64,000 bases of DNA, from NCBI GenBank assembly GCA_028282825.1, contig JANQGZ010000059.1:12281-76280 (forward strand), given 5' to 3'. This DNA comes from SAR324 cluster bacterium. Lineage in GTDB: Bacteria; SAR324; XYD2-FULL-50-16. Position numbers and translations under genes: made by a program. The notes below the pieces were generated by a model. It was not told where the DNA came from. It did no database searches and saw nothing but the letters and a program-made list of their open reading frames with translations. Each line of letters begins with the position of its first letter. Positions within the stretch are counted from its first letter, which is position 1. This document shows, one piece after another, positions 40,723 through 62,913 of the stretch.

Positions 40723-43700
40723 ATGGAAGACATTCCAGGAATAGAGCTTAAAGAGTGCATTTACGAAAGCCAGAGAGTGTCTATTTACAAGGGAGTTGAC
40801 CTCCAACAGTCACCTGTCATTGTCAAAATACCTGCGGCCTATACATTCGGTGCCGAATCGCTGGCCAGGCTCGAACGGGAATTTCAGCTGGGGAGTCAAA
40901 TTAACTCCCCGGGAATCATCAGAATGTATTCCCTGGAGTCTGTAGGGCACAACAAAGCCATAGTCATGGAAGATTTTGGAGGTATTTCTCTAAAAAAATA
41001 CCTGGCAATCACCAAACTTGGGCTTCACGAATTTCTGAACCTTTCTGTGGGCCTTTCAGATATACTGCACCAATTGCATCACTATCAGATCATCCATCGA
41101 GATATAAAACCGGCCAACATCCTGATCGATCCCGCAACTGGAGAACTTAAGCTGATTGACCTCAGTCTGGCTCGCAAACTATCGACTCGCTCCCATATCC
41201 CGTTTGTTCAGACAAAACTGGAAGGTTCGCTGGAATATTTACCTCCTGAGCAGACCGGTCGGGTTAACAGGTCAGTTGGTTTTCATTCCGATTTGTATTC
41301 ACTGGGAGCAACATTTTATGAAATGTTGTCCGGCCGGCCACCTTTTATAGCTGATGATCCGATAAGCCTGGTGCATGCTCATATTGCAAAAACCCCCGAC
41401 CCTATTCAGGCGGAGTTCGAGGTCCCTGAAATTGTTTCGGAAATTGTTCTGAAACTTTTATCTAAAATGGCTGAAGATCGTTACCAGGAGGCGGTTGGTT
41501 TAAAACACGACTTGGAAAAGTGCCAAATTATATTAAAAGATGAAAAAGAGCTGGTAGGTTTTGAGTTGGGTGAAAAAGACCTCCCAAGGCATTTCAGGAT
41601 TCCTGAAAAGATTTATGGCAGAGAAAAAGAGCTTTCCTGCCTGATCGATTCTTTTCTGGAAACAGTACAGGGGGACACACGCGTGATTTTTCTCACCGGA
41701 AGGGAAGGGATTGGAAAAGCCAAGCTGGCCGATGAGATGAAACGTTTAACCATGGAACAAAATGGCTATTTTGTCTCCGGCAGGTCGGAACAGTCCGCGA
41801 ATCCTGCTCCCTACAAAGTTCTCACCCGGGTTTTTGAGGACCTGATTCAACTGTTGTTGGCAGATTCACCACAAAAACTTGAGAGTCTGAAAAAAGTCCT
41901 AATAACCAGGTTAGGTAGCCAATTTTCTGACATCACAGGAATTATCCCCAGTATGGAACTGGTTTTGGGAAAAGCCACCGAACCTGTTCAACCCGAATCC
42001 CAGCGGAGTTCTCACAGGTTTATTCCCGGTATGATTGCATTTCTGCAATCTGTTGCCTCGCCAGACACCCCGCTGGTTATTTACCTGGAAGATATTCAAT
42101 GGATGTCCGAATCATCCAAAAAGCTTTTTGTGGAATTGCTCAAAGAACCAGGCTTATCCAATATTCTGTTTATTGGCTCATATAGGTCTACGGTTCCTGA
42201 AGCGACCGGGATTACCAGACTTATTGAGGAAGTCCGGCAAAGCCTCAATGATAGAATAACCGAACTGGAAATAGAGCCATTGCAGCTTTCGGACATCAAT
42301 CGTCTCTTGTCTGATATGCTTCATGTCGAAATGGCCGAAACCAAAGAACTGGCACAACTGGTCAAGCAAAAAACCAATGGTATTCCTTTCTTTATGATCG
42401 ACTATCTAAAACGGTTGGCGCATAAGGAATTGATCTATTTTGATAAGGAAAGACTAAAATGGAAATGGAAGATTAGTGACGCCAGAAGGCAGAAAGCTTC
42501 CATTAATGTAGTTGAATCCATGCTTGAGCAGTTTTCCGACCTTCCGGTATCAACAAGGGATTATTTAAGTGCTGCATCCTCTATGGGAAATTTTTTTGAA
42601 ACGGACCTGCTTTCCAAAGTGCTTGGTATTGAACCATCCGATCTGACCCCATTGATCAGAAAAGCGGCTGATTTAGGCTTGGTCAATCAGCTAGGAGAAA
42701 CCTTTGATAAAGACAATACCAATACCCTGTACCGATTCTCTCATCCTGATATCAGACAAGGCATCTACGAACAGATAGCTAGCGAAAAACAAGTTGATTT
42801 CCACCTTAAAACAGGCAGATTGCTTTTGGAGAGTCTGCCGGAAGAGCAGCAGGAAGAAAAGCTGTTCGACATAGTCAATCATTTTAACCTGGCCGGTGAA
42901 TTAATTAAAGAACCCGCTGAATTGGTGAGATTATCGAATTTAAACCTTCGAGCTTGCCAAAAAGCTCGTTCCTCCGCTGCCTTTGAATTCGCCTCCAAAT
43001 TCGCAGATAAGGGCCTTTCTTTCCTGCCTGCCGATCATTGGAAATACCATTATAAGTTATCCCTGCAACTATTCCGTGAAAAAGCGATTTCCGAATATGC
43101 TGCACAAAGGGATAAGTCGGCCTCCGCCATGTTTGAGGGCATTCTCGAAAACGCCCAATCGAAACTGGACAAGTTCGATGTTTATATGGATTGGATAAAG
43201 CAGTTGAAGTCCAGAAGCGATTATGCAACTGCTTCCCAAAGAGTATTGGAATGTCTTCGCACTATAGGTGTTGAAATTCCGGATTCCAAAACAGGCATGC
43301 AAGCTGCCCTGAAGGAGGAACAAAAGAAGATAAAAACGCTCCTGGAGGAAGTGCCCCTATCGGAACAGTTGAATCAATCGGCTATGACTGATCCCTGCCA
43401 GTTAGCTATTGTGAAAATTCTTGTTGAAGTTGGTATAGAATCACTTTTTATCAACGGAGATTTTTTCATGACTGCACTGCTGGGGGCAAAAGGCATTAAC
43501 TTGGTCCTGGAGAACGGACACAGCATTTACTCCTCCTATCTCCTTGCTTTTTTGGCAAACTCGATGGCATTTCGCAAACAGTATGCAATTGCGGAAGAAG
43601 CAGGGCAACTGGCATTAAACATTTCTCGTAATTATCCAAATCCATACGTCGATCGCAGAATGTATCTTGAGTATTCGGCTTTTGTCCAACCATTTAACAG

Positions 43701-46515
43701 GCATTTAAAACTCAACAAGGAACAACTTCAGACCCATTTCAAATCCGGTCTTGAGGAGGGAGATTTTGACAGCGCCAGCAATATTTTGTGGCACGAAATG
43801 CTAAACGATTTCATTATGGGGAAAAATGTTCAACAGATATATGGGGCAAACAAACAGCATTTGGACTACATTGGCCGATATAAACACCTTTCCAAACCGT
43901 TGCTGGGATTGTTTGAAGTGCATATCAAGTATTATGTCGAAACGGCTGAGAACAGGAATGCCGATCAAGGTGATTATTTCAGTTCAAAGCGTTTTAAATT
44001 GATCGCCAACAGTCCTTCCGGCGTCACTGTATACTATCTTTTGACATTGATGCAGCTGTACCTTACCGACCAACATGAGCAGATGGCCATTTACGCTAAA
44101 AAAACCATCGTTGACAAAGCCATCTTTGCCACCACCTGGGTTTACACCCACTATTCCCTGTTTTATTTTGGCATCGCATTGTTGAGAGATTACCGAACCG
44201 GAGCCTATACAAAACCGGAAGAATACGATTTTTATGATGTCATTGAGTTGATTCGCTCCGAATACAAAATATATTCAGGGGCATGCAGGGTCAATTTTGA
44301 AGCAGCTTATCTGATCATTGAAGCTGAGCATGCCAGAAACTGTGGAAATGATATATCCGCTATGAAGCTCTACAGTCAGGCCATTGAATCAGCTTATAAT
44401 GCAGGCTTTATCAGTTTTGAGGCGATTGCAAACGAACTGGCTGCCGAATTTTATCGTACGCTTGATATTAAGGAAGTCTGCGCAGTTCACATTGGAAAAG
44501 CCATTCAACTCTATAAACTGTGGGGTATGACTGAAAAAGTGGAATATCTGACCAAAGAGTTTGCCGACTTTCTGGTCCTCTGGAAACGGTCCCTGTCCTC
44601 ACGTCAGGACTCGGTAATTTCTCCCCACGGCAGTCAGACTCATGAATCACTGACAGAGCAGATTGATCTTAAGTCGATCATACAAGCCTCCCGGGTACTT
44701 TCCGGTGAAATGGTGCTGGATCGGCTGATTGAAAATCTTTTGAAGATTATGATTGAGAATTCCGGAGCCCAAAAAGGCGTTTTGATCATGCCCAGGGGTA
44801 ATGAACTGGTTATTGAGGCGGAAGGTTTAATGGAACTGGATAAGGTCCGTTACTTTCCTTCAACACCTTTGCTGGAATCCAAAATAGTCCCCCACTCGGT
44901 TATCGGGTATGTTCACAGAACATCTGCCACACTGGTATTGGATGATGTCTCCAAGGAGCATCACTATCAAAAAGATAGTTACATTCAAAATCGGCAACCT
45001 AAGTCGATTTTATGTATGCCGGTCATCCATTCTCAAAAACTGTTGGCTATTCTCTATTTCGAAAACTATCTCAGTACCGGAATCTTTTCACCTGAAAGAA
45101 TCAAAACTCTCGAAATACTGGCCTCGCAAGCTGCCATTTCAGTGGAAAACGCTTCGATATACAATGATCTTCTGAAAGAGGTCTCCGAAAGGAGACAAGC
45201 CGAGGAAAGCCTGAGAAGCAGCGAGAAAAAATATCGATTGGTTACGGAAAATACGAACATTGTTATCTGGACCATGAATCTCCGCGGGAAATTCACCTTC
45301 ATCAGTCCTTCCATCACCAGGCTGGTCGGCTATACTCCTGAAGAATTCGTTAAATTGAAATCAGCAGACTACCTTACTCCCGAATCAGAAAGGATGGCAA
45401 CCGAAGCCTTTTATGAAAGTGCTGACAACTTAAAAAGCGGAACTGAGCAAAGGCTAAATCTGCAATTGGAATGTATTCGCAAAGATGGAACCCGATTCTG
45501 GGGAGAGTTGCAAATGAAAAGTTCCGTATTTGGTGAAGAACCGGAGCCCAGTTATATAGGTGTATTACGCGATATAACCACACGCAAGAAGGCCGAAGAT
45601 GAACTGGCAAATTACAGAGAACACCTGGAAGAGCTGGTGGATGAGCGGTCCAAGCAATTGAAAAAGGCACAAAAGGAATTACTGGAAAAGGCTCATCGGG
45701 CTGGAATGGCTGATATTGCAGCTGATATCCTTCACAACATCGGAAACATCCTCAACAGTGCCCATGTTTCCATACAATCCCTGGAAAAGATGTCCTCTTC
45801 TTCAGGATTATCGGATCTTCAGAGGGCCAATCAATTGTTAGACGAAAACATGGATTCTCTGGAATCTTTTATTTTAGATGATCCCAAAGGAGTTTTACTG
45901 CTTAAATATTATGCCATGGTAGAAAAGGAGCTGAGTGAAGAATTCACGGGCTACTATGCAGATGTAAAAAGGCTGGGGGAAAAGTTGGAAATGATCTCCA
46001 CAGCCATCAACACCCAGAAGAATTACATAGGAATTGACTCGCAAAATGAAATGCTTGAACTTTCGCAGGTTGTAGAAGATATTCTTACCATACAAGCCGG
46101 ATTAATTGAAAGAAACGGTGTCCGGATAGTCAATCAGTTAAAACCCATGCAAAGTATTCCTATTCAAAAAGTCAAACTCATGCACATTTTAATCAGCATC
46201 ATTAATAACTCTGTGGATGCGATGATTGATCTGTCTCCGGAAAACAGACAAATTTTGGTGCAGGGAGAAGAAAGCGATGAATCGGTTATTCTTAGAATTT
46301 CTGACAAAGGAAGGGGAATTAAACAGGAAAACCTCACCAAAATCTTCACCCAGGGTTACACCACAAAAAGGGATAGCCAGGGGTTCGCACTCCACACCTG
46401 TGCTAACTATATGGCTGATATGAGAGGCTCAATCAATGCAGAGAGCAAAGGTATTGGCCAGGGAGCCACCTTTATCCTGACCTTCAAAAAACAGACTGAT
46501 TCTGCTCCGATATAA
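40723..46515 (+). CDS. Giant multidomain sensor: Ser/Thr kinase - AAA/STAND-type NTPase - helical repeats - GAF - PAS - histidine kinase (HstK-like architecture)
   Basis: Ser/Thr-kinase domain: catalytic loop HRDIKPANILID and LEYLPPEQ. NTPase domain: P-loop GREGIGKA and Walker B VIYLEDIQW. GAF: (..GAQKGVLIM..ILCMPV..LLAILYFEN). PAS: (NIVIWTMNLRGKFTFISPS). Histidine kinase: H-region MADIAADILHNIGNILNS, N-box IINNSVDAM, G1 SDKGRGI. Confidence 0.9.
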   Translation: MEDIPGIELKECIYESQRVSIYKGVDLQQSPVIVKIPAAYTFGAESLARLEREFQLGSQINSPGIIRMYSLESVGHNKAIVMEDFGGISLKKYLAITKLGLHEFLNLSVGLSDILHQLHHYQIIHRDIKPANILIDPATGELKLIDLSLARKLSTRSHIPFVQTKLEGSLEYLPPEQTGRVNRSVGFHSDLYSLGATFYEMLSGRPPFIADDPISLVHAHIAKTPDPIQAEFEVPEIVSEIVLKLLSKMAEDRYQEAVGLKHDLEKCQIILKDEKELVGFELGEKDLPRHFRIPEKIYGREKELSCLIDSFLETVQGDTRVIFLTGREGIGKAKLADEMKRLTMEQNGYFVSGRSEQSANPAPYKVLTRVFEDLIQLLLADSPQKLESLKKVLITRLGSQFSDITGIIPSMELVLGKATEPVQPESQRSSHRFIPGMIAFLQSVASPDTPLVIYLEDIQWMSESSKKLFVELLKEPGLSNILFIGSYRSTVPEATGITRLIEEVRQSLNDRITELEIEPLQLSDINRLLSDMLHVEMAETKELAQLVKQKTNGIPFFMIDYLKRLAHKELIYFDKERLKWKWKISDARRQKASINVVESMLEQFSDLPVSTRDYLSAASSMGNFFETDLLSKVLGIEPSDLTPLIRKAADLGLVNQLGETFDKDNTNTLYRFSHPDIRQGIYEQIASEKQVDFHLKTGRLLLESLPEEQQEEKLFDIVNHFNLAGELIKEPAELVRLSNLNLRACQKARSSAAFEFASKFADKGLSFLPADHWKYHYKLSLQLFREKAISEYAAQRDKSASAMFEGILENAQSKLDKFDVYMDWIKQLKSRSDYATASQRVLECLRTIGVEIPDSKTGMQAALKEEQKKIKTLLEEVPLSEQLNQSAMTDPCQLAIVKILVEVGIESLFINGDFFMTALLGAKGINLVLENGHSIYSSYLLAFLANSMAFRKQYAIAEEAGQLALNISRNYPNPYVDRRMYLEYSAFVQPFNRHLKLNKEQLQTHFKSGLEEGDFDSASNILWHEMLNDFIMGKNVQQIYGANKQHLDYIGRYKHLSKPLLGLFEVHIKYYVETAENRNADQGDYFSSKRFKLIANSPSGVTVYYLLTLMQLYLTDQHEQMAIYAKKTIVDKAIFATTWVYTHYSLFYFGIALLRDYRTGAYTKPEEYDFYDVIELIRSEYKIYSGACRVNFEAAYLIIEAEHARNCGNDISAMKLYSQAIESAYNAGFISFEAIANELAAEFYRTLDIKEVCAVHIGKAIQLYKLWGMTEKVEYLTKEFADFLVLWKRSLSSRQDSVISPHGSQTHESLTEQIDLKSIIQASRVLSGEMVLDRLIENLLKIMIENSGAQKGVLIMPRGNELVIEAEGLMELDKVRYFPSTPLLESKIVPHSVIGYVHRTSATLVLDDVSKEHHYQKDSYIQNRQPKSILCMPVIHSQKLLAILYFENYLSTGIFSPERIKTLEILASQAAISVENASIYNDLLKEVSERRQAEESLRSSEKKYRLVTENTNIVIWTMNLRGKFTFISPSITRLVGYTPEEFVKLKSADYLTPESERMATEAFYESADNLKSGTEQRLNLQLECIRKDGTRFWGELQMKSSVFGEEPEPSYIGVLRDITTRKKAEDELANYREHLEELVDERSKQLKKAQKELLEKAHRAGMADIAADILHNIGNILNSAHVSIQSLEKMSSSSGLSDLQRANQLLDENMDSLESFILDDPKGVLLLKYYAMVEKELSEEFTGYYADVKRLGEKLEMISTAINTQKNYIGIDSQNEMLELSQVVEDILTIQAGLIERNGVRIVNQLKPMQSIPIQKVKLMHILISIINNSVDAMIDLSPENRQILVQGEESDESVILRISDKGRGIKQENLTKIFTQGYTTKRDSQGFALHTCANYMADMRGSINAESKGIGQGATFILTFKKQTDSAPI

Positions 46516-50807: not shown

Positions 50808-50988
50808 GATAAAATGAAACCAGGTGTTCTGTTCGGATATTTCTGAATTTAGAAGTGTTTCGATTCAGATGGCAATATAAATCATCCGGACAAGGATCGC
50901 AAGCAGGGTCGGATTATCGGGAGGGTAAGGTTTCGCCCAGGGCCTATCCGGAAAGAGGTTGAAGACAGGTGTTTAAAAATGATCACTT

Positions 50989-53145
50989 TCAATACTTTAA
51001 ACGTGCATAATAGGTTTTCCTGGAAGCTTCAATGGCTTGTTTTAAGGTAAAAATGTTTTTTGTTTCCAACAAGGGAATCATTTTTAAAAACAATTCCCCA
51101 GTGGTTAAGGCATCACCCAAGGCTGTGTGCCTGCCGATCACACGTATTCCCAGACGCTTGGCAATGGCTTCCAGATGATGTTTCTTTTGGGCCGGATTGA
51201 TAACAGCGGAAAGCAGCAAGGTATCCAATACCGGATTGGTAAATGAAATGCCCGTTGATCTTTCCTTCATTTGCAACATTTTCATGTCAAATGCCGCATT
51301 ATGCCCGATCAAGACAGTATCTCTGGCAAAGTTATAAAAATTGGGCAGGATGACTTTGATATCGGGCTGACCTTTCAGCATATCCGCTTTGATGCCATGG
51401 TATTTGATGGACTCTTTGGGAATGGATCTATGTGGATCAATCAACCTGTCAAACGATTCTTCCCTCAGCAGGCGGCCGTTTACAATCCTGAGGGCTCCTA
51501 TGGAAATAATCTCGTCTTCTTTGGGATTTAGACCGGTGGTTTCAGTATCAAATACAGTATAGGTGAGTTCGCTCAGCAGGCGGTCTTCCTCAAAATCGAG
51601 GATCTCAACCTGGTTAAAGATATCAAAATCATAAAACTCGGTTCGACTCTTAACAGAAATAGCCGTGTGGGGTCGATCGTTCGTAACAGGTTTTGATGTG
51701 ACTTTGGGAAACATCATACGAAGACATGGATACCCATCCGAGGTAACTTGAGGCCAAATTTCCGTATTATGTTGTCTCATGGTTTCTTTCAAAGTCAGGG
51801 GTATTGATGCTTCGCCAATTTCCATTCTCTGAAATACCCATTGATTCAAATCCTGTGGTGAAATAGAGGCCCCCTGCCAGGCAAGATCAAACATCACCGA
51901 TTTCCCGGACTGTTTAAATCTGCACTGAATCCATTCCGGTTCATTTTTTAAGACAAGTTTATGAAGTTGGAAAAGAACGGCATGCACAATAGAAAAGCTG
52001 TCGACATGAATCCATAGATTCTCATCGCCGGATTGGACCTCAATGGAGAGATCCAAATCTGACTGTGCCTTCTTTCTGATGATTTCCAACAGCTCATCAC
52101 ACTGAAAATCTTCCATGGGCCATTCCGATTTAGAGCCCAGGATGCTTTCAACTTCAGGGCAATCGATAACGCTCGACAGATTGTGGGTTTCATCCAATAT
52201 AATTCGCCTGAGTTTGGTCAATTCATCCGCTCCCATGTCGGGAAAGTCGATGATCGTTTCCATGGCTGCCCTGATGCCACTCATGGCAGAACGAATTGAG
52301 GTAATCAGTGAATCCAGGTATACCTCACGTTGATCCTCAACAACCATTCTCTGGGTGATATCTTTGACGATCAGCACAAAACCGAAGATTTCAAAGTCAT
52401 GGGCAATAATCGGGATTGCGTGAATATCGAGCATTCCACCACCATTTGTCGTATGGGCAAAATGATATCCCGATTGATCCTTCTCTTTTTCCAATCGGCT
52501 GGTCAGCTCATCAAAAACATGAACCACCTGTTTTTTATTCAAAATACCCAGAATTGATCGACCCAATCCGAGCGAGTCGGAAGGTATCCGGTTCCCCTGT
52601 TGATCGTCCGATTGATCGGCTAGTAATGACCTTGCCTTCTGGTTGTACAAGAGAATCTGCCAGTTTATGTTGCAGATTATGATTCCTTCAGGAAACCCGG
52701 AAATGACTGCTGCCAGACGGTTTTTCTCCTCTTCGGATTCGCGTTTGGCCTGTTGTATTGTTTTCTCTATCTCCTGTTCCGACAATTCAATACGATCTGC
52801 CATTTTATTGGTCATATCGACCAGGGATTCAAGTTCAGTGCTGCCTTCCAGGGAGATGCGATGAGACGAATTAACCGAAGTGACTATGGACAACTCCTCC
52901 ACAGTTCTTTTCAACGGCAGGACATAGGTGTTTAGAAATTGATCAAACGCCAGACCAAAGGCAAAAACAATTAAAACAAAGGCAATAAAAATGGGTCCGA
53001 TGTTGTCCTTGAAGATTTTTCCCAGCACCGTCTGCTCTTCCGGAGACAGGTTGAGCCAGAATTGGTAATAGATAACAGCCGCAATGATGCTGAGGATAAC
53101 AAAGGATATCAGTGCAAATAGCTGGTATTTGTTCTTGAGCAGCAT
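50989..53145 (-). CDS. Membrane HAMP-PAS sensor with a degenerate histidine-kinase-like core fused to a C-terminal DEDDh 3'-5' exonuclease (DnaQ/epsilon-like)
   Basis: - Two N-terminal TM helices.
- A HAMP-like segment: PLKRTVEEL...EGSTELESLVDMTNKMADRI.
- PAS: RLAAVISGFPEGIIICN...VKDITQR.
- A DHp-like helix, LDSLITSIRSAMSGIRAAMETI, with Thr/Ser where the phospho-His is expected.
- A CA-like block lacking the N and G boxes.
- Exo motifs VFDTETTG, GHNAAFDMKML and HTALGDAL. Confidence 0.8.
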   Translation of the reverse strand: MLLKNKYQLFALISFVILSIIAAVIYYQFWLNLSPEEQTVLGKIFKDNIGPIFIAFVLIVFAFGLAFDQFLNTYVLPLKRTVEELSIVTSVNSSHRISLEGSTELESLVDMTNKMADRIELSEQEIEKTIQQAKRESEEEKNRLAAVISGFPEGIIICNINWQILLYNQKARSLLADQSDDQQGNRIPSDSLGLGRSILGILNKKQVVHVFDELTSRLEKEKDQSGYHFAHTTNGGGMLDIHAIPIIAHDFEIFGFVLIVKDITQRMVVEDQREVYLDSLITSIRSAMSGIRAAMETIIDFPDMGADELTKLRRIILDETHNLSSVIDCPEVESILGSKSEWPMEDFQCDELLEIIRKKAQSDLDLSIEVQSGDENLWIHVDSFSIVHAVLFQLHKLVLKNEPEWIQCRFKQSGKSVMFDLAWQGASISPQDLNQWVFQRMEIGEASIPLTLKETMRQHNTEIWPQVTSDGYPCLRMMFPKVTSKPVTNDRPHTAISVKSRTEFYDFDIFNQVEILDFEEDRLLSELTYTVFDTETTGLNPKEDEIISIGALRIVNGRLLREESFDRLIDPHRSIPKESIKYHGIKADMLKGQPDIKVILPNFYNFARDTVLIGHNAAFDMKMLQMKERSTGISFTNPVLDTLLLSAVINPAQKKHHLEAIAKRLGIRVIGRHTALGDALTTGELFLKMIPLLETKNIFTLKQAIEASRKTYYARLKY

Positions 53146-53155
53146 ATCTACTGAC

Positions 53156-53521
53156 TTAATTGATCATTTCGTTGATTTTTTTGACTAGTTCTTTAGTGGA
53201 AAACGGTTTGATGATGTAGGCATCAGCCCCCATTGCCATGCCTTTCTCAATGTCCGAATCGCGGCTTTTTGCCGTGAGCAGAATAATTTTCATATCCTGC
53301 ATATCATATGCTGTGCGAAGAGTATGGCAGATCTCAAACCCGGTGATATCAGGTAGCATGATATCGAGCAAAACCAGATCCGGTCTGCTTTTGACCACAG
53401 ATTCAAGAACCTCCTTACCATTACGAGCGATCATTACTTCATAACCGCTCTGCTTCATCAGAAACTCCAGGGGCACCACTATGTTGGGTTCATCATCAAC
53501 TATCAGTATCTTTTTCGGCAT
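53156..53521 (-). CDS. Single-domain (receiver-only, CheY-like) response regulator
   Basis: MPKKILIVDDEPN...DLVLLDIMLPD...ILLTAKS...GADAYIIKPF. There is no output domain. I chose the start at 53521, preceded by AAGAGG. The stop lies 10 nt before the exonuclease-fusion start. Confidence 0.9.
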   Translation of the reverse strand: MPKKILIVDDEPNIVVPLEFLMKQSGYEVMIARNGKEVLESVVKSRPDLVLLDIMLPDITGFEICHTLRTAYDMQDMKIILLTAKSRDSDIEKGMAMGADAYIIKPFSTKELVKKINEMIN

Positions 53522-53595
53522 TTGAACCTCTTGGTAATGATTTACTTTCCTTTGCGCAAAGTGCACCTGGTTCAAATGAACCAGCCGGAATGGAT

Positions 53596-56352
53596 TTACA
53601 TGATGACATACTCAAATCGTTCAATCTCGACTCCCTTTTGATGTTTTGGAAGGGTGAAAGTAAATGTTGACCCTTTTTTAGGTTTACTCTCCACCCAGAT
53701 TTTGCCCCGGTGAGATTCAACTATCAGTTTACATATCGGAAGGCCCAGGCCACTTCCCGAATTGTTAGAATCAATCTGGCCTTTTAATTGGGTAAACCTC
53801 TCAAATACCAAACCCTTGTCTTTCGATTTAATCCCGATCCCATTGTCCTTGACCTCTACTTTCAAGTAATCTTTTTCTTCCGTCAAGGAGATTTGAATAC
53901 GCCCATTCTCGTTGTCACAAAATTTTACCGCGTTTGAAACCAGGTTGATTATCACCTGGATTATCCGGTCCCGATCCAACATCACCAGGGGAACTTCCTC
54001 CGGAGAGTGAACATCCAGGGCGATCTCTTTTCCTTCAATCAGCTGTCTGGTGGCATCTATGGCATCACCTATGATTTTTTTAATATTGGATAACTGCAAG
54101 TGCAGCACGGTTTTCTGGGAATCAAATTTCTGAATATCCAGCACCTGGTTGATCAGACGAGACAATCTCCGGGTTTCCTTGATAATAATGGCCGTAAACT
54201 CCGACTGTCTTTCTTCCTCAAGACCAGGGGTTTGATTCAAAATCTCAGCAAGAGCACGAATCGAAGTTAGTGGTGTGCGTAACTCATGGGTCACCGTAGA
54301 AATAAAATCATTCTTCAGCTTATCCAACTCCTTTAATTTCTCATTGGCTGATTTTAGTTCGGTAGTGGCTTTCTCCAGTTCAGACGACTTGGTTTCCAGT
54401 TCTTTACTATAGGCTATTGCCTGCTGGGTTTCGTCGAGCATTTTGATAATTTCATTGCTACTGAGTGGCTCCTTTTTAGCGATGGAATCCATCATCACCC
54501 TTGCGGTAGCCGATCCGATAGCGCCTGCCAGAAGTTTCTCAGCATAATTGACCAGATCGGTTTCTGCCTCAAGCAAATCTTCCCAATCGATGTTTCGGTT
54601 ATTTGCATAGGTTGTCAAAGCCCTGTCTGTCGCTTCTTCACCGATAAACCTGGCCAGCAGCGAACGCAGATCAAGGACACTGGCACCGGCAGTCTTCACA
54701 AAATGGGCATCGCGGGAATGATCGAATGCATCAACAAACAGGGTTGCCTGGCTGTATTCAAGAGGTGATGGTTTGCTGAACAAGGATATTCCCACATAAA
54801 AAGCAAAGTTGAACAGCAGGCTCCAAAACGCAGCATGGGAGATACTTTTAAATTCGGAAAATCCAAACAGTTGGTGTGGATTCAACCAGGACAGTCCGAA
54901 TGGACCTTCTGTCATGATGCTCAACGGGACCAAACCTGCCTGGGCCAGCGAAGGCAGAACCAGTGTGTAGGCCCAAACCAGAAACCCGACAGTTAAGCCG
55001 CCGAGCGCACCAATTCTGGTACCTCTTTTCCAAAAAATTCCCCCCAACATAGCCGGACCAAATTGAGCCACAGCAGTAAAAGAGGTCATTCCGATCGAAA
55101 CCAGGGGAGCATTTTTGGAAATGAAATGCACGTAGGTATATCCCAGCATCAGGACAAAAACGATGCTGGCCCTGCGAATCATCAAGATATGACGACTCAG
55201 ATCCTTTCTGACCGAAAGATCCCAAAAAGGAGAACGGAACAGAATAGGCATCACCAGTTCGTTGCAAATCATCGTTGAAAGGGCAATAGAAGAGACAATC
55301 ACCATGCTGGTGGCAGCTGACAAGCCCCCGATAAAGACAATCATGGCAATCAGCTTATGTCCCTCCGACAAAGGAAGTATCAATCCGAAATACTCCGACT
55401 CCATCTCTCTTCCCGGGAGACTCAGCAATCCCCCAAAGGCAATTGGAAGGACGAATATGTTTATAATCAGCAAATACAAGGGAAAGAGCCAGGTTGCCTT
55501 GTTCACATGCTCTTCATTAACATTTTCTACCGTCGACACTTGAAATTGCCTGGGTAAAAACATTATTGCCATCATTGAAATCACGGTCAGCCAGAGCCAT
55601 TCTGCAAATGCCCCTTGCGCTTCCGGCATAACAAATAAATGACCGTAACTGGATTCAGCCTGGTTGAAAATATCACCAAATCCGTTAAACATACCATATG
55701 TGACGAAGACTCCCAGAATCAGAAATGCCAGCAGCTTGACAATGGACTCGAACGCTATGGCCGCCACCACTCCTTCGTGTCGTTCTGTTGCATCCAGGTG
55801 CCTGGTTCCAAAAAGCAGGGCAAATGCGATTAAAACCAGGGTCACATAAAAGGCCGTGTCCCGTGGTACAAAAACATTGCCGGATAGTGCCGGGAAGTCT
55901 ATGTCGGGGTATTTGCTTACCACCAGGAAGCTTTCCGAAATGGCTTTTAGCTGCAGAGAGATATAAGGAACAATCCCAGCCACGGCTATGGTAGCGACCA
56001 GCCCCCCGAGCAGATTGCTCTTTCCGTAACGGGAGGAGATAAAATCAGCGATGGAGGTCAATCGGTGAGTCTTGCTGATGCGAATCATTTTGCGGAGAAT
56101 GATCCACCAGATACAAGCCATTAAGGTAGGCCCCAAATATATCGGCAGGTATCCGATACCGTCCCGAACGACAAACCCGATGTTGCCGTAGAATGTCCAG
56201 GCGGTGCAATAAACTGCCAGGGATAGTGAATAAACGTAGGGATTGCTGATTATACTTTTACCTGCATCCGCGCGTTTATCCCCGTAATAAGCAATGGCGA
56301 ACAACAGGCTGAGGTAACAAAACGCAGATAATAAAATGATCCAGCTTTCCAA
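53596..56352 (-). CDS. Sodium:solute-symporter-domain sensor histidine kinase (CbrA/CrbS-like architecture)
   Basis: The N-terminal ~500 aa is a polytopic SSS-type domain. Next come a helical linker resembling the STAC region and a coiled coil. The kinase core has H-box VTHELRTPLTSI, N-box NLVSNAVKF, G1 VKDNGIGI and G2 GSGLGLPICK. Confidence 0.9.
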   Translation of the reverse strand: MESWIILLSAFCYLSLLFAIAYYGDKRADAGKSIISNPYVYSLSLAVYCTAWTFYGNIGFVVRDGIGYLPIYLGPTLMACIWWIILRKMIRISKTHRLTSIADFISSRYGKSNLLGGLVATIAVAGIVPYISLQLKAISESFLVVSKYPDIDFPALSGNVFVPRDTAFYVTLVLIAFALLFGTRHLDATERHEGVVAAIAFESIVKLLAFLILGVFVTYGMFNGFGDIFNQAESSYGHLFVMPEAQGAFAEWLWLTVISMMAIMFLPRQFQVSTVENVNEEHVNKATWLFPLYLLIINIFVLPIAFGGLLSLPGREMESEYFGLILPLSEGHKLIAMIVFIGGLSAATSMVIVSSIALSTMICNELVMPILFRSPFWDLSVRKDLSRHILMIRRASIVFVLMLGYTYVHFISKNAPLVSIGMTSFTAVAQFGPAMLGGIFWKRGTRIGALGGLTVGFLVWAYTLVLPSLAQAGLVPLSIMTEGPFGLSWLNPHQLFGFSEFKSISHAAFWSLLFNFAFYVGISLFSKPSPLEYSQATLFVDAFDHSRDAHFVKTAGASVLDLRSLLARFIGEEATDRALTTYANNRNIDWEDLLEAETDLVNYAEKLLAGAIGSATARVMMDSIAKKEPLSSNEIIKMLDETQQAIAYSKELETKSSELEKATTELKSANEKLKELDKLKNDFISTVTHELRTPLTSIRALAEILNQTPGLEEERQSEFTAIIIKETRRLSRLINQVLDIQKFDSQKTVLHLQLSNIKKIIGDAIDATRQLIEGKEIALDVHSPEEVPLVMLDRDRIIQVIINLVSNAVKFCDNENGRIQISLTEEKDYLKVEVKDNGIGIKSKDKGLVFERFTQLKGQIDSNNSGSGLGLPICKLIVESHRGKIWVESKPKKGSTFTFTLPKHQKGVEIERFEYVIM

Positions 56353-56403
56353 ATCGGCTTTACTTATGAAGGTTAGAGGTTTAACTAAAGAGAAACCGGC
56401 ACA

Positions 56404-56634
56404 CTATTCGCTGTGAACATCGCTGTCTTCCTTTCGTTTTTGTCGCAGTTCCATCAACACTATCATCAGGCCGATGAATACAGCCCAGACAAAAAAAAGA
56501 TAGAGGTATAAAATCGGAATGCTGGCAATGGTTTTACTCAAATTCACCAGTGACAGGATCGGGTATTGCAGACCGGCCAGTCCGACAATAAATAAAAAGG
56601 TCAGTCGTTCAGCAAGATACGTGCGTGAAAGCAT
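56404..56634 (-). CDS. Small two-TM membrane protein upstream of the symporter-kinase
   Basis: 76 aa with two hydrophobic helices and a charged tail. It lies 51 nt upstream of the kinase on the same strand. Small membrane ORFs commonly precede SSS-family genes. Confidence 0.5.
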   Translation of the reverse strand: MLSRTYLAERLTFLFIVGLAGLQYPILSLVNLSKTIASIPILYLYLFFVWAVFIGLMIVLMELRQKRKEDSDVHSE

Positions 56635-56822: not shown

Positions 56823-56910
56823 GTGTCGTCCCTAAGGGACTTAAATGGTTAATGGAATGAATCACCAGCGGTTGACACCGCTGGCTACTTCTGTGCCATC
56901 CCTTCGGGAT
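56823..56910. repeat. Structured ~88-nt repeat, left arm of an inverted pair
   Basis: Three hairpins: GTCCC-TAA-GGGAC (56828-56840), CCAGCGG-TTGACA-CCGCTGG (56865-56884) and ATCCC-TTC-GGGAT (56898-56910). Confidence 0.6.
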
Positions 56911-57023
56911 TTAACCCATAGTCAATAATACTTCATAATTATCAATCACTTACTAATTCTAACGTTAGACATAAATACCAATTCCAAACATAGCTTCAAT
57001 CCAATGGCTTTGATTGATGACAA

Positions 57024-57109: not shown

Positions 57110-57283
57110 CATGGTGTTATCAACCCCTTCAGATTGACAAGCTATTCGAATTTTCCGGTGAACCTTTTTTCCAACTTGGATATCGACAATTATTGTGGCT
57201 TGCTTTAAGTTAGCGGGAAAAGATGGCCGGATATGCCGGTCTATCCGCCAAAGATAAATGCTTTAATCGTTTGCCAGAGGAGA

Positions 57284-57508
57284 ATGATGAAATTGGAACC
57301 CAAGGAAATCACCTGCCATCATTGCGGAGACTCTACCATGATAGAGAAAGATAGAGGCTGGTGCGAAAAATGTGGTCGCAGGATATTTTATGACCCCAAA
57401 GACCTGAAGCGCCACCAGTGGATGACCTATTATATGTATGCCGTGATTATTGGTGTTCTCGGGACAGGGTTTATACTCATCAGACGATTCTGGGATGCCT
57501 TTCAATAA
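57284..57508 (+). CDS. Small zinc-ribbon protein with a C-terminal TM helix
   Basis: MMKLEPKEITCHHCGDS...WCEKCGRRIF carries two CxxC pairs, followed by the hydrophobic YMYAVIIGVLGTGFILI. GAGGAG lies immediately upstream. Start uncertain; the listed ORF begins at 57233. Confidence 0.45.
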   Translation: MMKLEPKEITCHHCGDSTMIEKDRGWCEKCGRRIFYDPKDLKRHQWMTYYMYAVIIGVLGTGFILIRRFWDAFQ

Positions 57509-57538: not shown

Positions 57539-58036
57539 CTATTTCTTTCTTCTTTTCTTAGCACCTGACTTTTGCAGTGAATTTCTCGTTTTTGTACGTT
57601 CCCGTATAGCTTTTTGGTATTCCTTTGCCGCTTTTTCCGCCTTTGCTTGGGCTTCTTCTGCTCTGGCCTTGAAGTATGTTATGGTTTCTTTCTTCATCAA
57701 ATAATAGATCGAAGTCGAGAAAAGTAAAATGTTGATAAGCAGAACACCCACAATATTAAACTGTTTGGCTGCATAGAAAGAAACCACGAAATATACATAC
57801 CAGATGATCGCCCACCCTGTGAAAAACACACAGATAAAACGCCCCCACTTTTTTACGAAAATCAGTCCCATAAACAACATCATGGCTATGACCAAATGAG
57901 GATAAGGGAGTTCTTCCTTTAAAATGTACAAGTATGCAGTCATATAATGTGCAGCCCAGGCGACAAACACAAAGATAAACGAGCGTTGCACAGAGGAGGG
58001 TAACTCAATAAACTTCTCAAGCAATATTTTTAACAC
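57539..58036 (-). CDS. Hypothetical membrane protein with a lysine-rich C-terminal tail
   Basis: 165 aa with four hydrophobic segments, followed by KARAEEAQAKAEKAAKEYQKAIRERTKT...KKRRKK. Confidence 0.55.
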   Translation of the reverse strand: MLKILLEKFIELPSSVQRSFIFVFVAWAAHYMTAYLYILKEELPYPHLVIAMMLFMGLIFVKKWGRFICVFFTGWAIIWYVYFVVSFYAAKQFNIVGVLLINILLFSTSIYYLMKKETITYFKARAEEAQAKAEKAAKEYQKAIRERTKTRNSLQKSGAKKRRKK

Positions 58037-58902: not shown

Positions 58903-60678
58903 TTACGCTTCCTTGACCACGATCATTTGCTCGTTGTCTGCTCGCTCAATCTGTTTATCGTTGGTGGTTGACATTTCAGCCTTAAAGCAGAGAGCCCACA
59001 TCAGCACAATTCCAATAATCCACCAGACGATCTGCCAGGACCAGAGTGGAGGGAACCCGGCAAATGCAAACGCATTGTTACCCAAGAGACAAGCAGGACC
59101 GATAGCAAAAAAGTACCAGATTGGAACCAGAACTTTCATGGCAGTTCGCCATTTCTTTCCGGCTTCAGATGGTTCATCCACGCTGTCCAACCACTTTCGC
59201 ACTTCAAGTTGTCTGTCGATGGTTTCCTGTGAATCTTTAAGTCCAAGCCCTCTGCAGAGATAAGCGACTACAAGACCGGCAAAGAGCCCCCAGAACGCTG
59301 TGTGCATAGACAGTGGGTATCGATAGATAAAGTAGGTTACGAAACAGGCGGCAATGGCTGCGATCATACCCAATGTCGCCCCAATACTTGGAAACTTGAA
59401 TCCGTAATGTACCCCCAGCAACAGCAGGTACATAATGAAGCCAAAGGCGGTTGCGAAGCCTCCGATCATAACGATGGCACCTGATGCCGTTAAACTCACC
59501 ACAACTGCTGCTATGGTAATCAAGGTAGCAAATAAGCGGTTAACCCAGATCTGCTCGGCGTGACCGGCTTCCTGCTTCTTGACATAGCGCCAGTAAACAT
59601 CTCGCAGAATGATTGTTCCCCCGGTACCAATATAAGGTGCTGCCGTGGAATGCATCGCTGCAATCGCGCCCAGGAATACGATTCCCAGGACCGGACCCGG
59701 CAAGAATTTGGTCATCAGTTTTGGCACCACATCACCGGTTTCGCCAAATGTCATTTCCCCGGCCAGTTCAAGAATCTTTGCTCCCATTCCCTGGAATGCA
59801 GCAAAAAAGATCAAACAGATACCTACCACAAAGGTAGACATGAATACCTGTTGCCATGCCAGTGGTTTTGGACTCTTGATTCCGAAATTCCAAAGTGTAA
59901 ATGCCGGCGATGACTGAATACCCATCAGAGCGAACATATAGGTGAGAATCATCATCGCAGTCCAGCCCCCACCCAGGCCGAAGTTGATCAGGCCCGGAAC
60001 TTCCAGCAACTTAGGATCCATGGTTTTCAACTGGGCAGACATACCTGACCAGCCGCCGATCACATCGGATGTTACCACATAAAATCCCAGCAGCATGATA
60101 CCGCCTACCAGCAGCAAAAATTGGAGTACACCAACCCAGGTACTGGCTTTTAATCCACCGGTTACCACATAGAACCAAACAATGGCGGCCATGATGATGA
60201 TACCATAGGTCATAGGTACACCGGCAACCCATTGAAACAGAGCACCTGCGGCGATCAGCTGAATTCCGGAGTAGAAAATGGAATAGAGAAAAGCTGCCAG
60301 CACTGTCAGCCAGCGCACTGCCTCGTTGTTATAATAGTAAGCGAACATGTCACCCGGTGTGACAAATCCGTAGCGCTTACCCATTAGCCAGTTTCTCTTC
60401 GCAAAAAAGGCACCGGTAATAGGGATGGTCAGCACATAAAACGAAGCGAAGGCGTATGCGAGACCTGCACCGTGAATCAAACGCGGATGCCCGATAAAGG
60501 TCCATCCTGAAAAAGACGCTGCGGTAGCCGCCATCAAAAAAGCGATAAACGGAATGGAACGTCCTGCAATTCCGTATCCTGAGGCTGTTTTTTCTGTGAA
60601 ATAACCTCTCAGGCCCCACCAGAAAGCGTAAACAATGTAAAGACCTAAAAAAATGTAAACCCAAGTTTTTGGATCCAT
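58903..60678 (-). CDS. Sodium:solute symporter family permease
   Basis: 591 aa with about 14 TM helices. The SSS-type N-terminus is GYGIAGRSIPFIAFLMAATAASFSGWTFIG. It lies downstream of acs. Confidence 0.85.
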   Translation of the reverse strand: MDPKTWVYIFLGLYIVYAFWWGLRGYFTEKTASGYGIAGRSIPFIAFLMAATAASFSGWTFIGHPRLIHGAGLAYAFASFYVLTIPITGAFFAKRNWLMGKRYGFVTPGDMFAYYYNNEAVRWLTVLAAFLYSIFYSGIQLIAAGALFQWVAGVPMTYGIIIMAAIVWFYVVTGGLKASTWVGVLQFLLLVGGIMLLGFYVVTSDVIGGWSGMSAQLKTMDPKLLEVPGLINFGLGGGWTAMMILTYMFALMGIQSSPAFTLWNFGIKSPKPLAWQQVFMSTFVVGICLIFFAAFQGMGAKILELAGEMTFGETGDVVPKLMTKFLPGPVLGIVFLGAIAAMHSTAAPYIGTGGTIILRDVYWRYVKKQEAGHAEQIWVNRLFATLITIAAVVVSLTASGAIVMIGGFATAFGFIMYLLLLGVHYGFKFPSIGATLGMIAAIAACFVTYFIYRYPLSMHTAFWGLFAGLVVAYLCRGLGLKDSQETIDRQLEVRKWLDSVDEPSEAGKKWRTAMKVLVPIWYFFAIGPACLLGNNAFAFAGFPPLWSWQIVWWIIGIVLMWALCFKAEMSTTNDKQIERADNEQMIVVKEA

Positions 60679-60876: not shown

Positions 60877-62913
60877 TTAATCGGATTCGACCAGGTCCTT
60901 AATGGCATCAACCACATCAGGATTGGCAAGCGTCATTACATTGCCTACATCCCCCTTATTGGAAATCGCTCCCAGTACCCTTCGCATGATTTTGCCTGAC
61001 CGGGTCTTTGGCATGTCAGGGACAATCCAGACTCTTCTTGGTTTGGCGATTTTCCCAATTTCAGTGCAGACGGCATCTGAAATCTTTTGTGCGAGGTCAT
61101 TGGATGCTTCAAAACCCGGTTTTAAAGCAATATAGAGATCCGGTTCCTTACCCTTGATTTCATGGGCAACAGGAACTACCGCAGCTTCAGCGACCTCTTC
61201 AACAACGAGTGCGGCAGATTCGATCTCTTTCGTTCCCAGGCGATGTCCGGAAACGTTGATAACATCATCAATTCTTCCCAGGATTCTGAAATAGCCATCT
61301 TCAGCTTCCATGGCAGCATCACCCGTCAGATAGGGCCAATCTCTCCAATCCTTGCTCTTGGGATCATTGTTGTATCGGGCAAAATAAGTTTTGACAAACC
61401 TGTCACGATCCCCCCAGATGGTCTGGAATTGACCCGGCCATGGATTCTGGATACAAATATTACCGGCCCGCCCTTCACCACGCTTGATCTCTTTTCCTTC
61501 CTCATCAAAAATAATGGGATGAATTCCAGGCACGGCCGGTCCGGCACTTCCAGGCTTCATCGCTTTGATACCGGGCATGGTACTGCATAAAAAGCCTCCT
61601 GTTTCCGTCTGCCACCAGGTATCCACAATAGCTGCTTTGCCTTTTCCGACAACGTTGTAATACCATTTCCAAACTTCCGGCTCGATAGGTTCACCAACCG
61701 TAGTCATATGCTTGAACTTGAACTGGTATTTATTTGGTTCATCGGGCCCAATCTTTCTTAGTGCCCGAATGGCTGTTGGTGCGGTATGAAAAATATTGAT
61801 GTCCAACGCCTGGGCAATTCTCCAGGATCTGCCTGCATCCGGATAGGTAGGAACTCCTTCGTAGATTACTGTGGAAGCGCACAAGGACAACGGACCATAT
61901 ACAATGAAGGAATGGCCCGTTATCCAACCGATGTCTGCCATACACCAATACACATCCTCGGGATGAATATCCTGAACATATTTTGACATCGCTGTGACAT
62001 AAGCCAGGTAACCGCCTGTTCCATGCTGACACCCTTTGGGTTTACCGGTTGTTCCACTGGTATACATCAGAAACAGGGGATCTTCAGCTTTCATGGAAAC
62101 GGGTTCTACCCTGACTCCGTAAAACTCCTTCAACTTTTCATTGACAATAAAATCACGTCCGTCGACCAAGGGAGTGTCAGTTGACATTTTTCCGGGATAT
62201 CGTTGCCACACCAGAACTTTGTCAACCGTCTGACCTTCTTTTCTTGCCAGTGCACAAGCCTCATCGGCTGCTTGCTTGTGATTCAGCAATTTACCACTTC
62301 GGTAGTAGGCATCCATGGTTAGCAGGACCCTGCTTTGGGAATCCACAATTCTATCCGCACAGGCGCTGGCTGAAAATCCTCCGAATACCACGGAATGGAT
62401 AACACCGAGTCTGGCACAAGCCAGCATGGTTATTGGCAATTCAGCTGACATGGGCATGTGTATGGTTACCCTGTCACCGGTTTTCAATCCGGCAAAGTCC
62501 CTAAGCAGGGCGGCCATCTCATTAACCCGAACGTATAGTTCCTGGTAGGTAATGTGATCAATTCTTTCCTCCTCCAACTCAGGGACAAAATGGATCGCAG
62601 TTTTGTTCTTATTTTTTTCCAAATGTCTATCAATGCAATTATAGCTGGCATTTAGCCTGCCTCCAACAAACCACTTAAAACATGGAGCATCACTGGTATC
62701 CAAGGTCGTGTCCCAGTATTTATCCCAGCTCAACAGCTCGGCATACTCATTAAAACACTCCGGGAAATTATCCAGACTGAATCGCTCAAAAATGCTGCTA
62801 TCAGTCAAATTCGCCTGACCAATAAACTCTGATGAAGGATGGTAATATTCCTCTTCTCCCCAATGGACCGCAATTTGAGCTTCTGAGGTTTCAACAATGT
62901 TCTTTTCTGCCAT
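60877..62913 (-). CDS. acs: Acetyl-CoA synthetase (AMP-forming acyl-CoA ligase)
   Basis: The AMP-binding motif YTSGTTGKPKG is present, along with WWQTETGG, YLTGDAA and PKTRSGKIMRR. The Acs-type N-terminus is FKWFVGGRLNASYNCIDRHL. Confidence 0.9.
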   Translation of the reverse strand: MAEKNIVETSEAQIAVHWGEEEYYHPSSEFIGQANLTDSSIFERFSLDNFPECFNEYAELLSWDKYWDTTLDTSDAPCFKWFVGGRLNASYNCIDRHLEKNKNKTAIHFVPELEEERIDHITYQELYVRVNEMAALLRDFAGLKTGDRVTIHMPMSAELPITMLACARLGVIHSVVFGGFSASACADRIVDSQSRVLLTMDAYYRSGKLLNHKQAADEACALARKEGQTVDKVLVWQRYPGKMSTDTPLVDGRDFIVNEKLKEFYGVRVEPVSMKAEDPLFLMYTSGTTGKPKGCQHGTGGYLAYVTAMSKYVQDIHPEDVYWCMADIGWITGHSFIVYGPLSLCASTVIYEGVPTYPDAGRSWRIAQALDINIFHTAPTAIRALRKIGPDEPNKYQFKFKHMTTVGEPIEPEVWKWYYNVVGKGKAAIVDTWWQTETGGFLCSTMPGIKAMKPGSAGPAVPGIHPIIFDEEGKEIKRGEGRAGNICIQNPWPGQFQTIWGDRDRFVKTYFARYNNDPKSKDWRDWPYLTGDAAMEAEDGYFRILGRIDDVINVSGHRLGTKEIESAALVVEEVAEAAVVPVAHEIKGKEPDLYIALKPGFEASNDLAQKISDAVCTEIGKIAKPRRVWIVPDMPKTRSGKIMRRVLGAISNKGDVGNVMTLANPDVVDAIKDLVESD

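Follow-up and report, generated by a model that had tools for sequence, protein, structure and literature searches.

The outputs of bacterial two-component systems are usually thought of as transcription, cyclic di-GMP turnover or chemotaxis. CbrA/CbrB, CrbS/CrbR (MxtR/ErdR) and RpuS/RpuR, whose kinases start with an SLC5 transporter-like domain of 13 transmembrane helices and a four-helix STAC domain, work through transcription factors such as the NtrC-type CbrB and the LuxR-type CrbR (PMC13488458, PMC5715377, PMC9100948). Here, we describe a locus that shares with these systems the SLC5-STAC N-terminus of the kinase, a small peptide encoded upstream and linkage to acetyl-CoA synthetase (acs) and symporter genes. 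It lies in a 64,000-nucleotide stretch of DNA (the window) from a SAR324 cluster bacterium (GCA_028282825.1, contig JANQGZ010000059.1, positions 12,281 to 76,280). Unlike the described regulators, its response regulator is a receiver-only protein with no DNA-binding or sigma-54 domain, and the apparent target is a protein rather than a promoter. That protein, which we call exo718, appears to combine a histidine pseudokinase, anchored in the membrane, with a DEDDh 3'-5' exonuclease.

Other described systems resemble parts of the locus. The most MxtR/ErdR (CrbS/R)-dependent genes of Pseudomonas putida are PP_0353, encoding an RNase_T exonuclease, and PP_0354, encoding a cNMP-CBS-nucleotidyltransferase, both of unknown function; equivalents of this exonuclease/DUF294 combination are Pflu5625 in P. 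fluorescens and a pair in Vibrio (PMC9927547; bioRxiv 10.64898/2026.09.07.749794; PMC5715377). A first-pass annotation of the window, made from the letters alone, had pointed to epsilon-like exonuclease genes near acs/actP, and PP_0353/PP_0354 bear this out (PMC9927547; bioRxiv 10.64898/2026.09.07.749794). In these bacteria and in most loci of the family described here, a DEDDh exonuclease and a DUF294 protein adjoin, or are co-regulated with, acetate genes downstream of an SLC5-STAC kinase. The Pseudomonas and Vibrio exonucleases, however, are small, soluble, of another subfamily and under transcriptional control, whereas exo718 carries its own signalling module and the window lacks DUF294.

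The closest precedent for the signalling module is the DivL pseudokinase of Caulobacter crescentus, which reads phosphorylated DivK through its kinase core (PMC4211667; bioRxiv 10.1101/812529). DivL and exo718 are both PAS-containing, membrane-anchored kinase homologues with a DHp domain that lacks the histidine and a receiver-only partner, and in both, information is proposed to flow from the phosphorylated regulator into the core. On the other hand, DivL has no enzymatic output domain, allosterically controls the kinase CckA and belongs to the cell cycle, whereas exo718 has an exonuclease output, erased ATP-binding motifs and a carbon-metabolism context. A two-component pathway that ends in the hydrolysis of nucleotide phosphodiesters is also represented by PorX, a response regulator whose PglZ phosphodiesterase output acts on oligonucleotides (PMC9757075); there, receiver and enzyme, the latter of another fold, are joined directly in one protein, with no pseudokinase intermediary.

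The cassette occupies positions 50989–56634 of the window on the minus strand and consists of four same-strand open reading frames (ORFs), the arrangement that the first-pass annotation had given. The first, small76 (56404–56634), encodes a conserved 76-residue peptide with two transmembrane (TM) helices and lies 51 nucleotides (nt) upstream of the gene for the predicted SLC5-STAC sensor histidine kinase (53596–56352; 918 residues, TTG start). The stand-alone receiver (REC; 53156–53521; 121 residues) starts at an ATG preceded by AAGAGG, and the ATG of exo718 (50989–53145; 718 residues) follows the receiver stop after 10 nt, so that the two genes are in different reading frames. Because a promoter and terminator scan gave no signal above the shuffled expectation, the operon structure is read from spacing and synteny.

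The architecture of exo718 was pieced together from profiles, homologues and an AlphaFold2 model. The protein starts with two TM helices (residues ~6–74; 52924–53130) joined by an outer loop of ~15 residues, with no periplasmic sensor domain. A HAMP-like two-helix linker and signalling helix come next (residues ~75–149; 52699–52923), with invariant N92, R96, G101, N113 and A116, and then a PAS domain (residues 152–265; 52351–52692), indicated by a beta-sheet in the model, an invariant GLGRS at 193–197 and a weak Pfam PAS_9 match (21 bits, E=1.8e-4 to 3.7e-4, below the gathering score). These are followed by a DHp-like helical hairpin without the phospho-acceptor histidine (residues 266–328; 52162–52350) and a CA-like alpha/beta domain without N, G1 and G2 motifs (residues 345–482; 51700–52113; predicted local distance difference test (pLDDT) ~95). 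The C-terminus is a DEDDh exonuclease of the epsilon/PolC-like type (residues 528–718; 50992–51564), which matches Pfam RNase_T at residues 531–686 (5e-37) and PDB 2p1j (1.2e-30).

The model, built on 150 sequences, reached a pLDDT of 91.3 and a predicted TM-score (pTM) of 0.83, and superseded an earlier 12-sequence model that was too weak for inter-domain claims (pLDDT 67, pTM 0.32). It places TM1 at residues 2–32, TM2/AS1 at 49–90, a further helix at 103–149, the PAS beta-sheet at 154–262, the helical hairpin at 264–327, the alpha/beta domain at 345–481 and the exonuclease at 528–715. The best Foldseek matches were full-length WalK and VicK (HAMP-PAS-DHp-CA) and YF1, over 380–480 columns (E 2e-20 to 1e-12), among them VicK 4i5s over 427 columns; ThkA and the cores of HK853, EnvZ and YycG were also matched. 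The order of domains that had been read by eye (TM-TM, HAMP, PAS, DHp-like, CA-like, DEDDh) is thus supported by the model and Foldseek, with one reservation about HAMP, for which no Pfam match was found in exo718 at E<=10. The model shows helix 49–90, loop 91–102 and helix 103–149 in this region, giving a helix-loop-helix at 75–122 after TM2, and it is on this helix layout and the motif pattern that we call the segment HAMP-like.

The exonuclease domain superimposed on Pol III epsilon and PolC with a root-mean-square deviation (rmsd) of 1.6–2.1 A over 172–190 columns (1.6–1.8 A, TM 0.85–0.87, for Pol III epsilon 2ido). It shares ~31–34% identity and the Exo I–III residues D, E, D, H, D with these proteins (2ido, 1j53, 2p1j, 9qrn). 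It differs from them in that exo718 has no polymerase or theta/alpha-binding context, is predicted to be tethered to the membrane behind a pseudokinase and carries the extra, conserved C-terminal tail T-Y-Y-A-R-x-K-Y.

Is the middle of exo718 truly derived from a kinase? Its sole kinase-profile match was PnpS, at residues 112–440. Compared with the neighbouring kinase, BLASTP aligned the whole DHp and CA region (E=2e-4), and the two DHp hairpins align without gaps. In the reverse direction, tblastn with the real kinase core (DHp and CA) recovered the pseudokinase region of exonuclease genes at five related loci (L006, L017, L043, L046 and L070; E<1e-5), which provides independent evidence that the two regions are homologous. 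We regard exo718 as descended from a WalK/PhoR-type kinase, with a dead ATP site.

We then compared motif conservation in 84 homologues (80 species loci, the window and three close relatives) and in 150 more distant representatives from clustering at 50%. The acceptor position, Thr282 in the window, is a histidine in none of the 84; the commonest residue is Glu (36 homologues), and Lys, Gln, Arg, Asp and Thr come next. The N-box Asn, G1 DxGxG and G2 GxGLGL are replaced across the same set by other conserved motifs (W-x-G; P-L-T-L). Neither a normal phospho-histidine nor an ATP lid was found, in agreement with the first-pass annotation, which had also described the nuclease motifs as complete. 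The five catalytic residues (D533, E535, D620, H673 and D678) are invariant in 84/84, with Exo I (DxE), Exo II (D) and Exo III (Hx4D) all present, and so are the motifs FDTETTGL and HNAAFD and the Exo III His and Asp (RH....D). Even among the distant representatives, DEDHD is retained by 116 of 150, and the remainder are mostly truncated fragments. On these patterns, the exonuclease is predicted to be intact and the kinase core dead.

The pseudo-DHp hairpin nevertheless keeps R(H+3), which is R285 in the window and present in 84/84, together with R(H+10), E(H+14), P(H+20), F(H+30) and E(H+37). These residues and the gapless alignment are consistent with a retained receiver-docking surface. A histidine occupies the acceptor position in 3 of the 150 distant representatives. 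P0066 ('LTHDSRRS'), P0069 ('LTHDVRSA') and P0106 have this histidine next to a CA domain that is still degenerate, and such members may be evolutionary intermediates or phosphotransfer (HPt-like) proteins.

The kinase upstream had been described as symporter-fused with intact H, N and G boxes. Pfam SSF did not match its N-terminus (first 600 residues) even at E=10, and hhalign of this part against the neighbouring SSF symporter gave a probability of 0.3. Residues 5–621 (54490–56340, minus strand) match residues 10–588 of PDB 10ED chain A (phmmer E=9e-68; 17-sequence profile E=8e-91), a cryo-EM structure that shows the SLC5-STAC part of Pseudomonas CbrA bound to the small peptide CbrX (PMC13488458). 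Because of this match, we assign the 918-residue protein to the SLC5/STAC 'transceptor' kinases, and the earlier label of symporter-fused kinase is correct. Its core (53641–54315, minus strand) comprises HisKA (residues 680–745; 2e-18) and HATPase_c (residues 793–904; 1.3e-30) and appears intact, with H box THELRTPLTSI, N box NLVSNAVKF, G1 DNGIGI and G2 GSGLGL. The best NCBIfam profiles are PnpS, WalK and PhoR. In this PhoR/WalK-like core, the kinase differs from the described systems. A PAS domain is present in CbrA, and CrbS, as a hybrid kinase, includes a receiver; the 918-residue kinase has neither.

The receiver has Response_reg (2.2e-29) as its only Pfam domain, of the OmpR/PhoB/YycF type, so that the earlier description of a receiver without an output domain stands. 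All residues of the phosphorylation site are present: the acidic pocket DD 9–10, the phospho-acceptor Asp52 (LLDIMLP), Thr and Lys. Homologues of small76 lie upstream of the kinase in 38/80 loci and share the motif G-Q/R-R-L...NYP...GIPLLY...W. CbrX is a two-helix membrane peptide that is translationally coupled to CbrA and co-purifies with it (PMC13488458). Since small76 has no detectable sequence match among PDB chains, including those of 10ED, we regard it as a positional and topological analogue of CbrX only.

The metabolic context is also as first described. Upstream of the cassette, on the minus strand, are a 591-residue SSF-family symporter, probably a monocarboxylate/acetate carrier and often found beside the cassette (58903–60678; Pfam SSF 2e-32), and acs (60877–62913), whose product exceeds the cut-off of the NCBIfam acetate--CoA ligase profile with 785 bits. 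The ORFs scanned between 24970 and 62913 yielded no response regulator that binds DNA, and the sole DNA-binding regulator among them is a LysR-type gene (32541–33434).

How widespread is this arrangement? The N-terminal 515 residues of exo718 alone recovered 253 clusters at E<=1e-30 in 1.84 billion representatives, and the architecture is uniform, since nearly all of these clusters are ~700–730 residues long. When each species was represented by a single genome, the family turned up in at least 548 of them, and synteny was counted in the best 80 loci fetched from these. The fetched loci are mostly labelled as Desulfobacterales, Rhodocyclales (Zoogloea, Dechloromonas, Azonexus, Accumulibacter, Aromatoleum) or Burkholderiales, along with a few metagenome-assembled genomes (MAGs) labelled Chloroflexi/Anaerolineae, Spirochaetia or Thermoleophilia. 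The family also occurs in Paracoccus. In databases, the proteins are labelled 'PAS domain-containing protein', 'DNA polymerase III subunit epsilon' or '3'-5' exonuclease', and our literature searches found no description of the fusion family or of its function.

The synteny of the receiver, the exonuclease and the kinase is conserved across these genomes. In 76/80 loci, the exonuclease gene has a same-strand receiver gene immediately before it; an SLC5-STAC kinase is present in 58/80 (50 upstream, same strand), a DUF294 nucleotidyltransferase in 53/80 (48 downstream, same strand) and an acs homologue in 40/80. The adjacency of receiver and exonuclease spans four bacterial classes, with stop/start spacings mostly of -19 to +13 nt. 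Several loci from Desulfobacterales keep the receiver-exonuclease pair intact although their kinase gene lies on the opposite strand, is kilobases distant or is missing from the 10-kb flanks; therefore, the exonuclease, rather than the kinase, is the receiver's tighter partner. Symporter homologues with 66–73% identity (67–71% for full-length matches) adjoin acs and the receiver-exonuclease pair in Desulfobacterales.

The DUF294 protein is the usual fifth member of the cassette, though the window and its 89%-identical relative both lack it. In a 55%-identical relative (L081), the order is acs, symporter, a 162-residue protein (p162), small peptide, kinase, REC, exonuclease and CBS-DUF294, with DUF294 directly downstream of the exonuclease. 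Complete cassettes also exist in the tractable organisms Paracoccus denitrificans PD1222 and Cupriavidus necator N-1. Candidate loci in PD1222 bear the tags PDEN_RS25395–25415 and PDEN_RS22680–22695. Two cassettes lie on plasmid 1 of PD1222 (L084 and L086; NC_008688.1 31432–40293 and 624884–631784). One holds DUF294, small peptide, SLC5-STAC kinase, REC and exonuclease with overlapping stops and starts and no acs. The other, more divergent, holds acs, DUF4212, an SSS symporter, cNMP-CBS-DUF294, a 165-residue hypothetical protein, REC and a more degenerate 659-residue exonuclease, with no kinase nearby.

From the gene order, the domain architecture, the loss of the kinase motifs with conservation of the nuclease site, and the recurrent linkage, we infer a two-component pathway with an enzymatic rather than a transcriptional output, a reading to which we give roughly even chances. 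In such a pathway, the SLC5-STAC kinase and the CbrX-like peptide would sense a transported monocarboxylate, most likely acetate or a related short-chain acid because of the acs/symporter context. The kinase would autophosphorylate and pass the phosphoryl group to the stand-alone receiver, and the phosphorylated receiver (REC~P) would dock on the His-less DHp hairpin of exo718. The pseudokinase core could then integrate this signal with its own HAMP-like/PAS input and switch the exonuclease on or off at the membrane. In the best-supported mechanism, which resembles DivL/DivK, REC~P would bind the dead DHp and thereby gate the nuclease. In most genomes, the nuclease would work with the DUF294 nucleotidyltransferase; in the window, it would act alone. 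A parallel exists in Pseudomonas, where kinases of this family (CrbS/MxtR) act through transcription on an exonuclease/DUF294 pair.

What might the nuclease act on? Because of the membrane tethering and the partnership with a Pol-beta-type nucleotidyltransferase, we favour, speculatively, RNA 3' ends or short oligonucleotides over chromosomal DNA. In its fullest form, the proposal is that a phosphorylated stand-alone receiver, bound to a dead kinase core, gates a membrane-tethered exonuclease (teamed with DUF294 in most genomes) and so exerts post-transcriptional control of acetate or short-chain-acid metabolism through RNA 3' ends or oligonucleotides. This would be the protein-level counterpart of the CrbS/R-exonuclease/DUF294 regulon of Pseudomonas and Vibrio. 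We advance this extended version tentatively, as a possibility that falls short of an even chance.

Several observations weigh against the proposed pathway. The mutual information between REC and the pseudo-DHp, with average product correction (80 pairs, effective number of sequences (Neff) 50), was dominated by one column and gave no interpretable contacts; the control of REC against the real DHp (Neff 25) was equally noisy. When similarity between the pseudo-DHp and the cognate real DHp was compared for matched and shuffled pairs, alpha2 gave p values below 0.001 overall (p<0.0002), but the signal is largely between clades and may be compositional. Within clades, the values were z=1.3 (n=52) for those high in guanine plus cytosine (GC) and z=2.5 (n=11) for low-GC ones, and we do not count the similarity as evidence. 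No natural REC-exonuclease fusion was found, the long ORFs that suggested one being start-codon artefacts in high-GC genomes. With its own HAMP-like/PAS input, exo718 could also be regulated without REC. Of the 80 loci, 4 lack REC and 22 lack a nearby kinase, and no DUF294 homologue is present anywhere in the 64-kb window. Finally, deletions of the Pseudomonas exonuclease/DUF294 analogues produced only mild phenotypes (PMC9927547; bioRxiv 10.64898/2026.09.07.749794; PMC5715377).

Could exo718 be a modulator of the two-component system rather than its endpoint? It might bind or dephosphorylate REC~P or form heterodimers with the kinase, in which case REC would be a phosphate sink or signal at a distance, and the exonuclease would be controlled by HAMP/PAS or be constitutive. 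The Arg at H+3 of the pseudo-DHp, together with a frequent Ser (33 of 84) or Thr (7 of 84) at H+4, is reminiscent of the phosphatase motif of HisKA domains. On the other hand, Gly stands in place of the acidic H+1 residue in 61/84, and 41/84 have Ala at H+4. The kinase and exo718 are both membrane proteins with related DHp domains, exo718 has sensor domains of its own, and the rare members that keep the histidine with a dead CA domain (P0066 and P0069, 'LTHD.R') would fit phosphoryl exchange with REC. A modulator role, however, leaves unexplained both the near-constant fusion to a 3'-5' exonuclease with an invariant site and the persistence of REC beside the exonuclease in loci without a kinase. 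We consider it unlikely.

The linkage might instead reflect co-regulation only. Under this explanation, exo718 would be an autonomous, PAS/HAMP-gated nuclease of the acetate regulon, and the kinase and REC would signal elsewhere, for example, to an unlinked DNA-binding regulator, or REC would be charged by acetyl phosphate. The kinase-less and receiver-less loci counted above fit this view, as do orphan copies of the exonuclease (L003 and L072) and the position of the analogous Pseudomonas exonuclease as a regulon member rather than a signalling partner. Yet the near-constant REC-exonuclease adjacency, with overlapping or nearly overlapping stops and starts, is far tighter than regulon-level linkage, and a kinase core that has lost catalysis but is still strongly conserved points to a role in binding a partner. 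We regard mere co-regulation as distinctly unlikely.

Another thought is that the DEDDh domain does not act as a nuclease but binds nucleotides or protein as a partner of the DUF294 nucleotidyltransferase. Here, the Dechloromonas and Azonexus loci are relevant. In L030 (12162–17942; Dechloromonas), the 719-residue exonuclease protein (exo719) is followed by a minimal DUF294 protein (355 residues), a second, cNMP-CBS-DUF294 protein (651 residues), a 222-residue exonuclease-like protein and an SSF symporter; the same arrangement occurs in L044, L051, L058, L061, L066, L069, L074, L076 and L080. The 222-residue protein has substituted catalytic residues (DLN for DTE, AFL for AFD and RR..N for H....D), and such loci hold two nucleotidyltransferase/exonuclease-type pairs side by side, one of which apparently has a dead nuclease. 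This speaks for a non-catalytic DEDDh domain, but in exo718 and its 83 homologues the catalytic residues and motifs are invariant, and the window has no DUF294 partner that such a domain could serve, which makes this explanation very unlikely.

The idea of a DNA-repair or anti-phage nuclease, acting with sbcCD or in a defence system, can be all but set aside: sbcD and sbcC lie directly downstream of exo718 and a PADLOC CRISPR-associated DEDDh model matches the exonuclease domain (1.2e-41), but the sbcCD adjacency recurs only in the 89%-identical relative and in 0/80 species loci, the PADLOC match is a generic domain match with no system-level partners, and the conserved neighbours are metabolic (acs, symporters and the SLC5-STAC kinase).

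Is the exonuclease domain of exo718 an orthologue of the acs-linked exonuclease of Vibrio and Pseudomonas? We rejected this candidate relationship since the two fall in different NCBIfam subfamilies. Against NF006602 (PRK09146; cut-off 266), the family of the PP_0353/VC0299-type exonucleases linked to acs, the DUF294-adjacent Vibrio exonuclease scores 366 bits and exo718 71.2 bits, and the two are 26% identical. The acs-linked Vibrio-type enzyme is thus assigned to a different DEDDh subfamily. Because exo718 scores so far below the cut-off at this low identity, the exonuclease/DUF294 pairing in the two groups appears to be analogous, not orthologous.

Two variants bear on the function of the sensor/pseudokinase module. 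In P0123 (629 residues), the same module is fused to a DEDDy exonuclease (Pfam DNA_pol_A_exo1, 1.6e-26). In P0094 (L088, 2313–4748), an 811-residue soluble protein, a HAMP-remnant/PAS/pseudokinase module is joined to DUF294 and DUF294_C, and the exonuclease domain is deleted after 'LTYTV', with a junction that coincides with the beginning of Exo motif I ('LTELTYTV|LIRAI'). No REC or kinase lies nearby; since only one MAG contig carries P0094, the deletion-fusion could be genuine or an artefact of assembly. Because the module is independently fused to a DEDDy exonuclease and to DUF294, these variants underline its probable role as an input domain for nuclease and nucleotidyltransferase enzymes.

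Other features of the window surround the cassette. A 165-residue protein with several TM helices and a C-terminal tail rich in Lys and Arg (57539–58036, minus strand) belongs to no Pfam family; it has homologues in or near the acs-symporter part of related loci (L005, L016, L073, L081 and L082) and may be a further member of the cassette. The gap of ~900 nt between small76 and the next genes contains a marginal match to the Rfam small RNA Acido-Lenti-1 (56865–56911, plus strand; 38.7 against a gathering score of 37 bits, E=8.5e-6), which may be due to chance. Also within the cluster's intergenic gap is a 91-residue ORF (57233–57508, plus strand) with two CxxC pairs (zinc-ribbon-like) followed by a TM helix. 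On the other side, exo718 and sbcD are separated by only 181 nt (50808–50988), whereas in the 89%-identical relative (L082, 12158–15015), two ORFs of 242 and 449 residues without Pfam families lie between the exonuclease gene and sbcD. The difference indicates a recent deletion or insertion at the place where other genomes carry DUF294. A 1930-residue signalling protein (40723–46515, plus strand; Ser/Thr kinase, AAA_16, GAF, PAS and HATPase_c, in this order) adjoins sbcC in that relative (L082/L083) as well.

The family can be seen as a variant on both the pseudokinase receptors and the SLC5-STAC systems, with the potential to explain an open question in acetate signalling. If the proposed pathway is true, a widespread route that ends in a nuclease, through a pseudokinase serving as the receptor of a phosphorylated receiver, would constitute a new output logic for two-component systems and would extend what is known of DivL to processes other than the cell cycle of Caulobacter. 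In Beta-, Alpha- and Deltaproteobacteria, kinases of the CrbS/MxtR family are physically linked to these enzyme types, an exonuclease and a DUF294 nucleotidyltransferase. Therefore, it can be argued that the nuclease/nucleotidyltransferase pair is core to short-chain-acid physiology and not a bystander.

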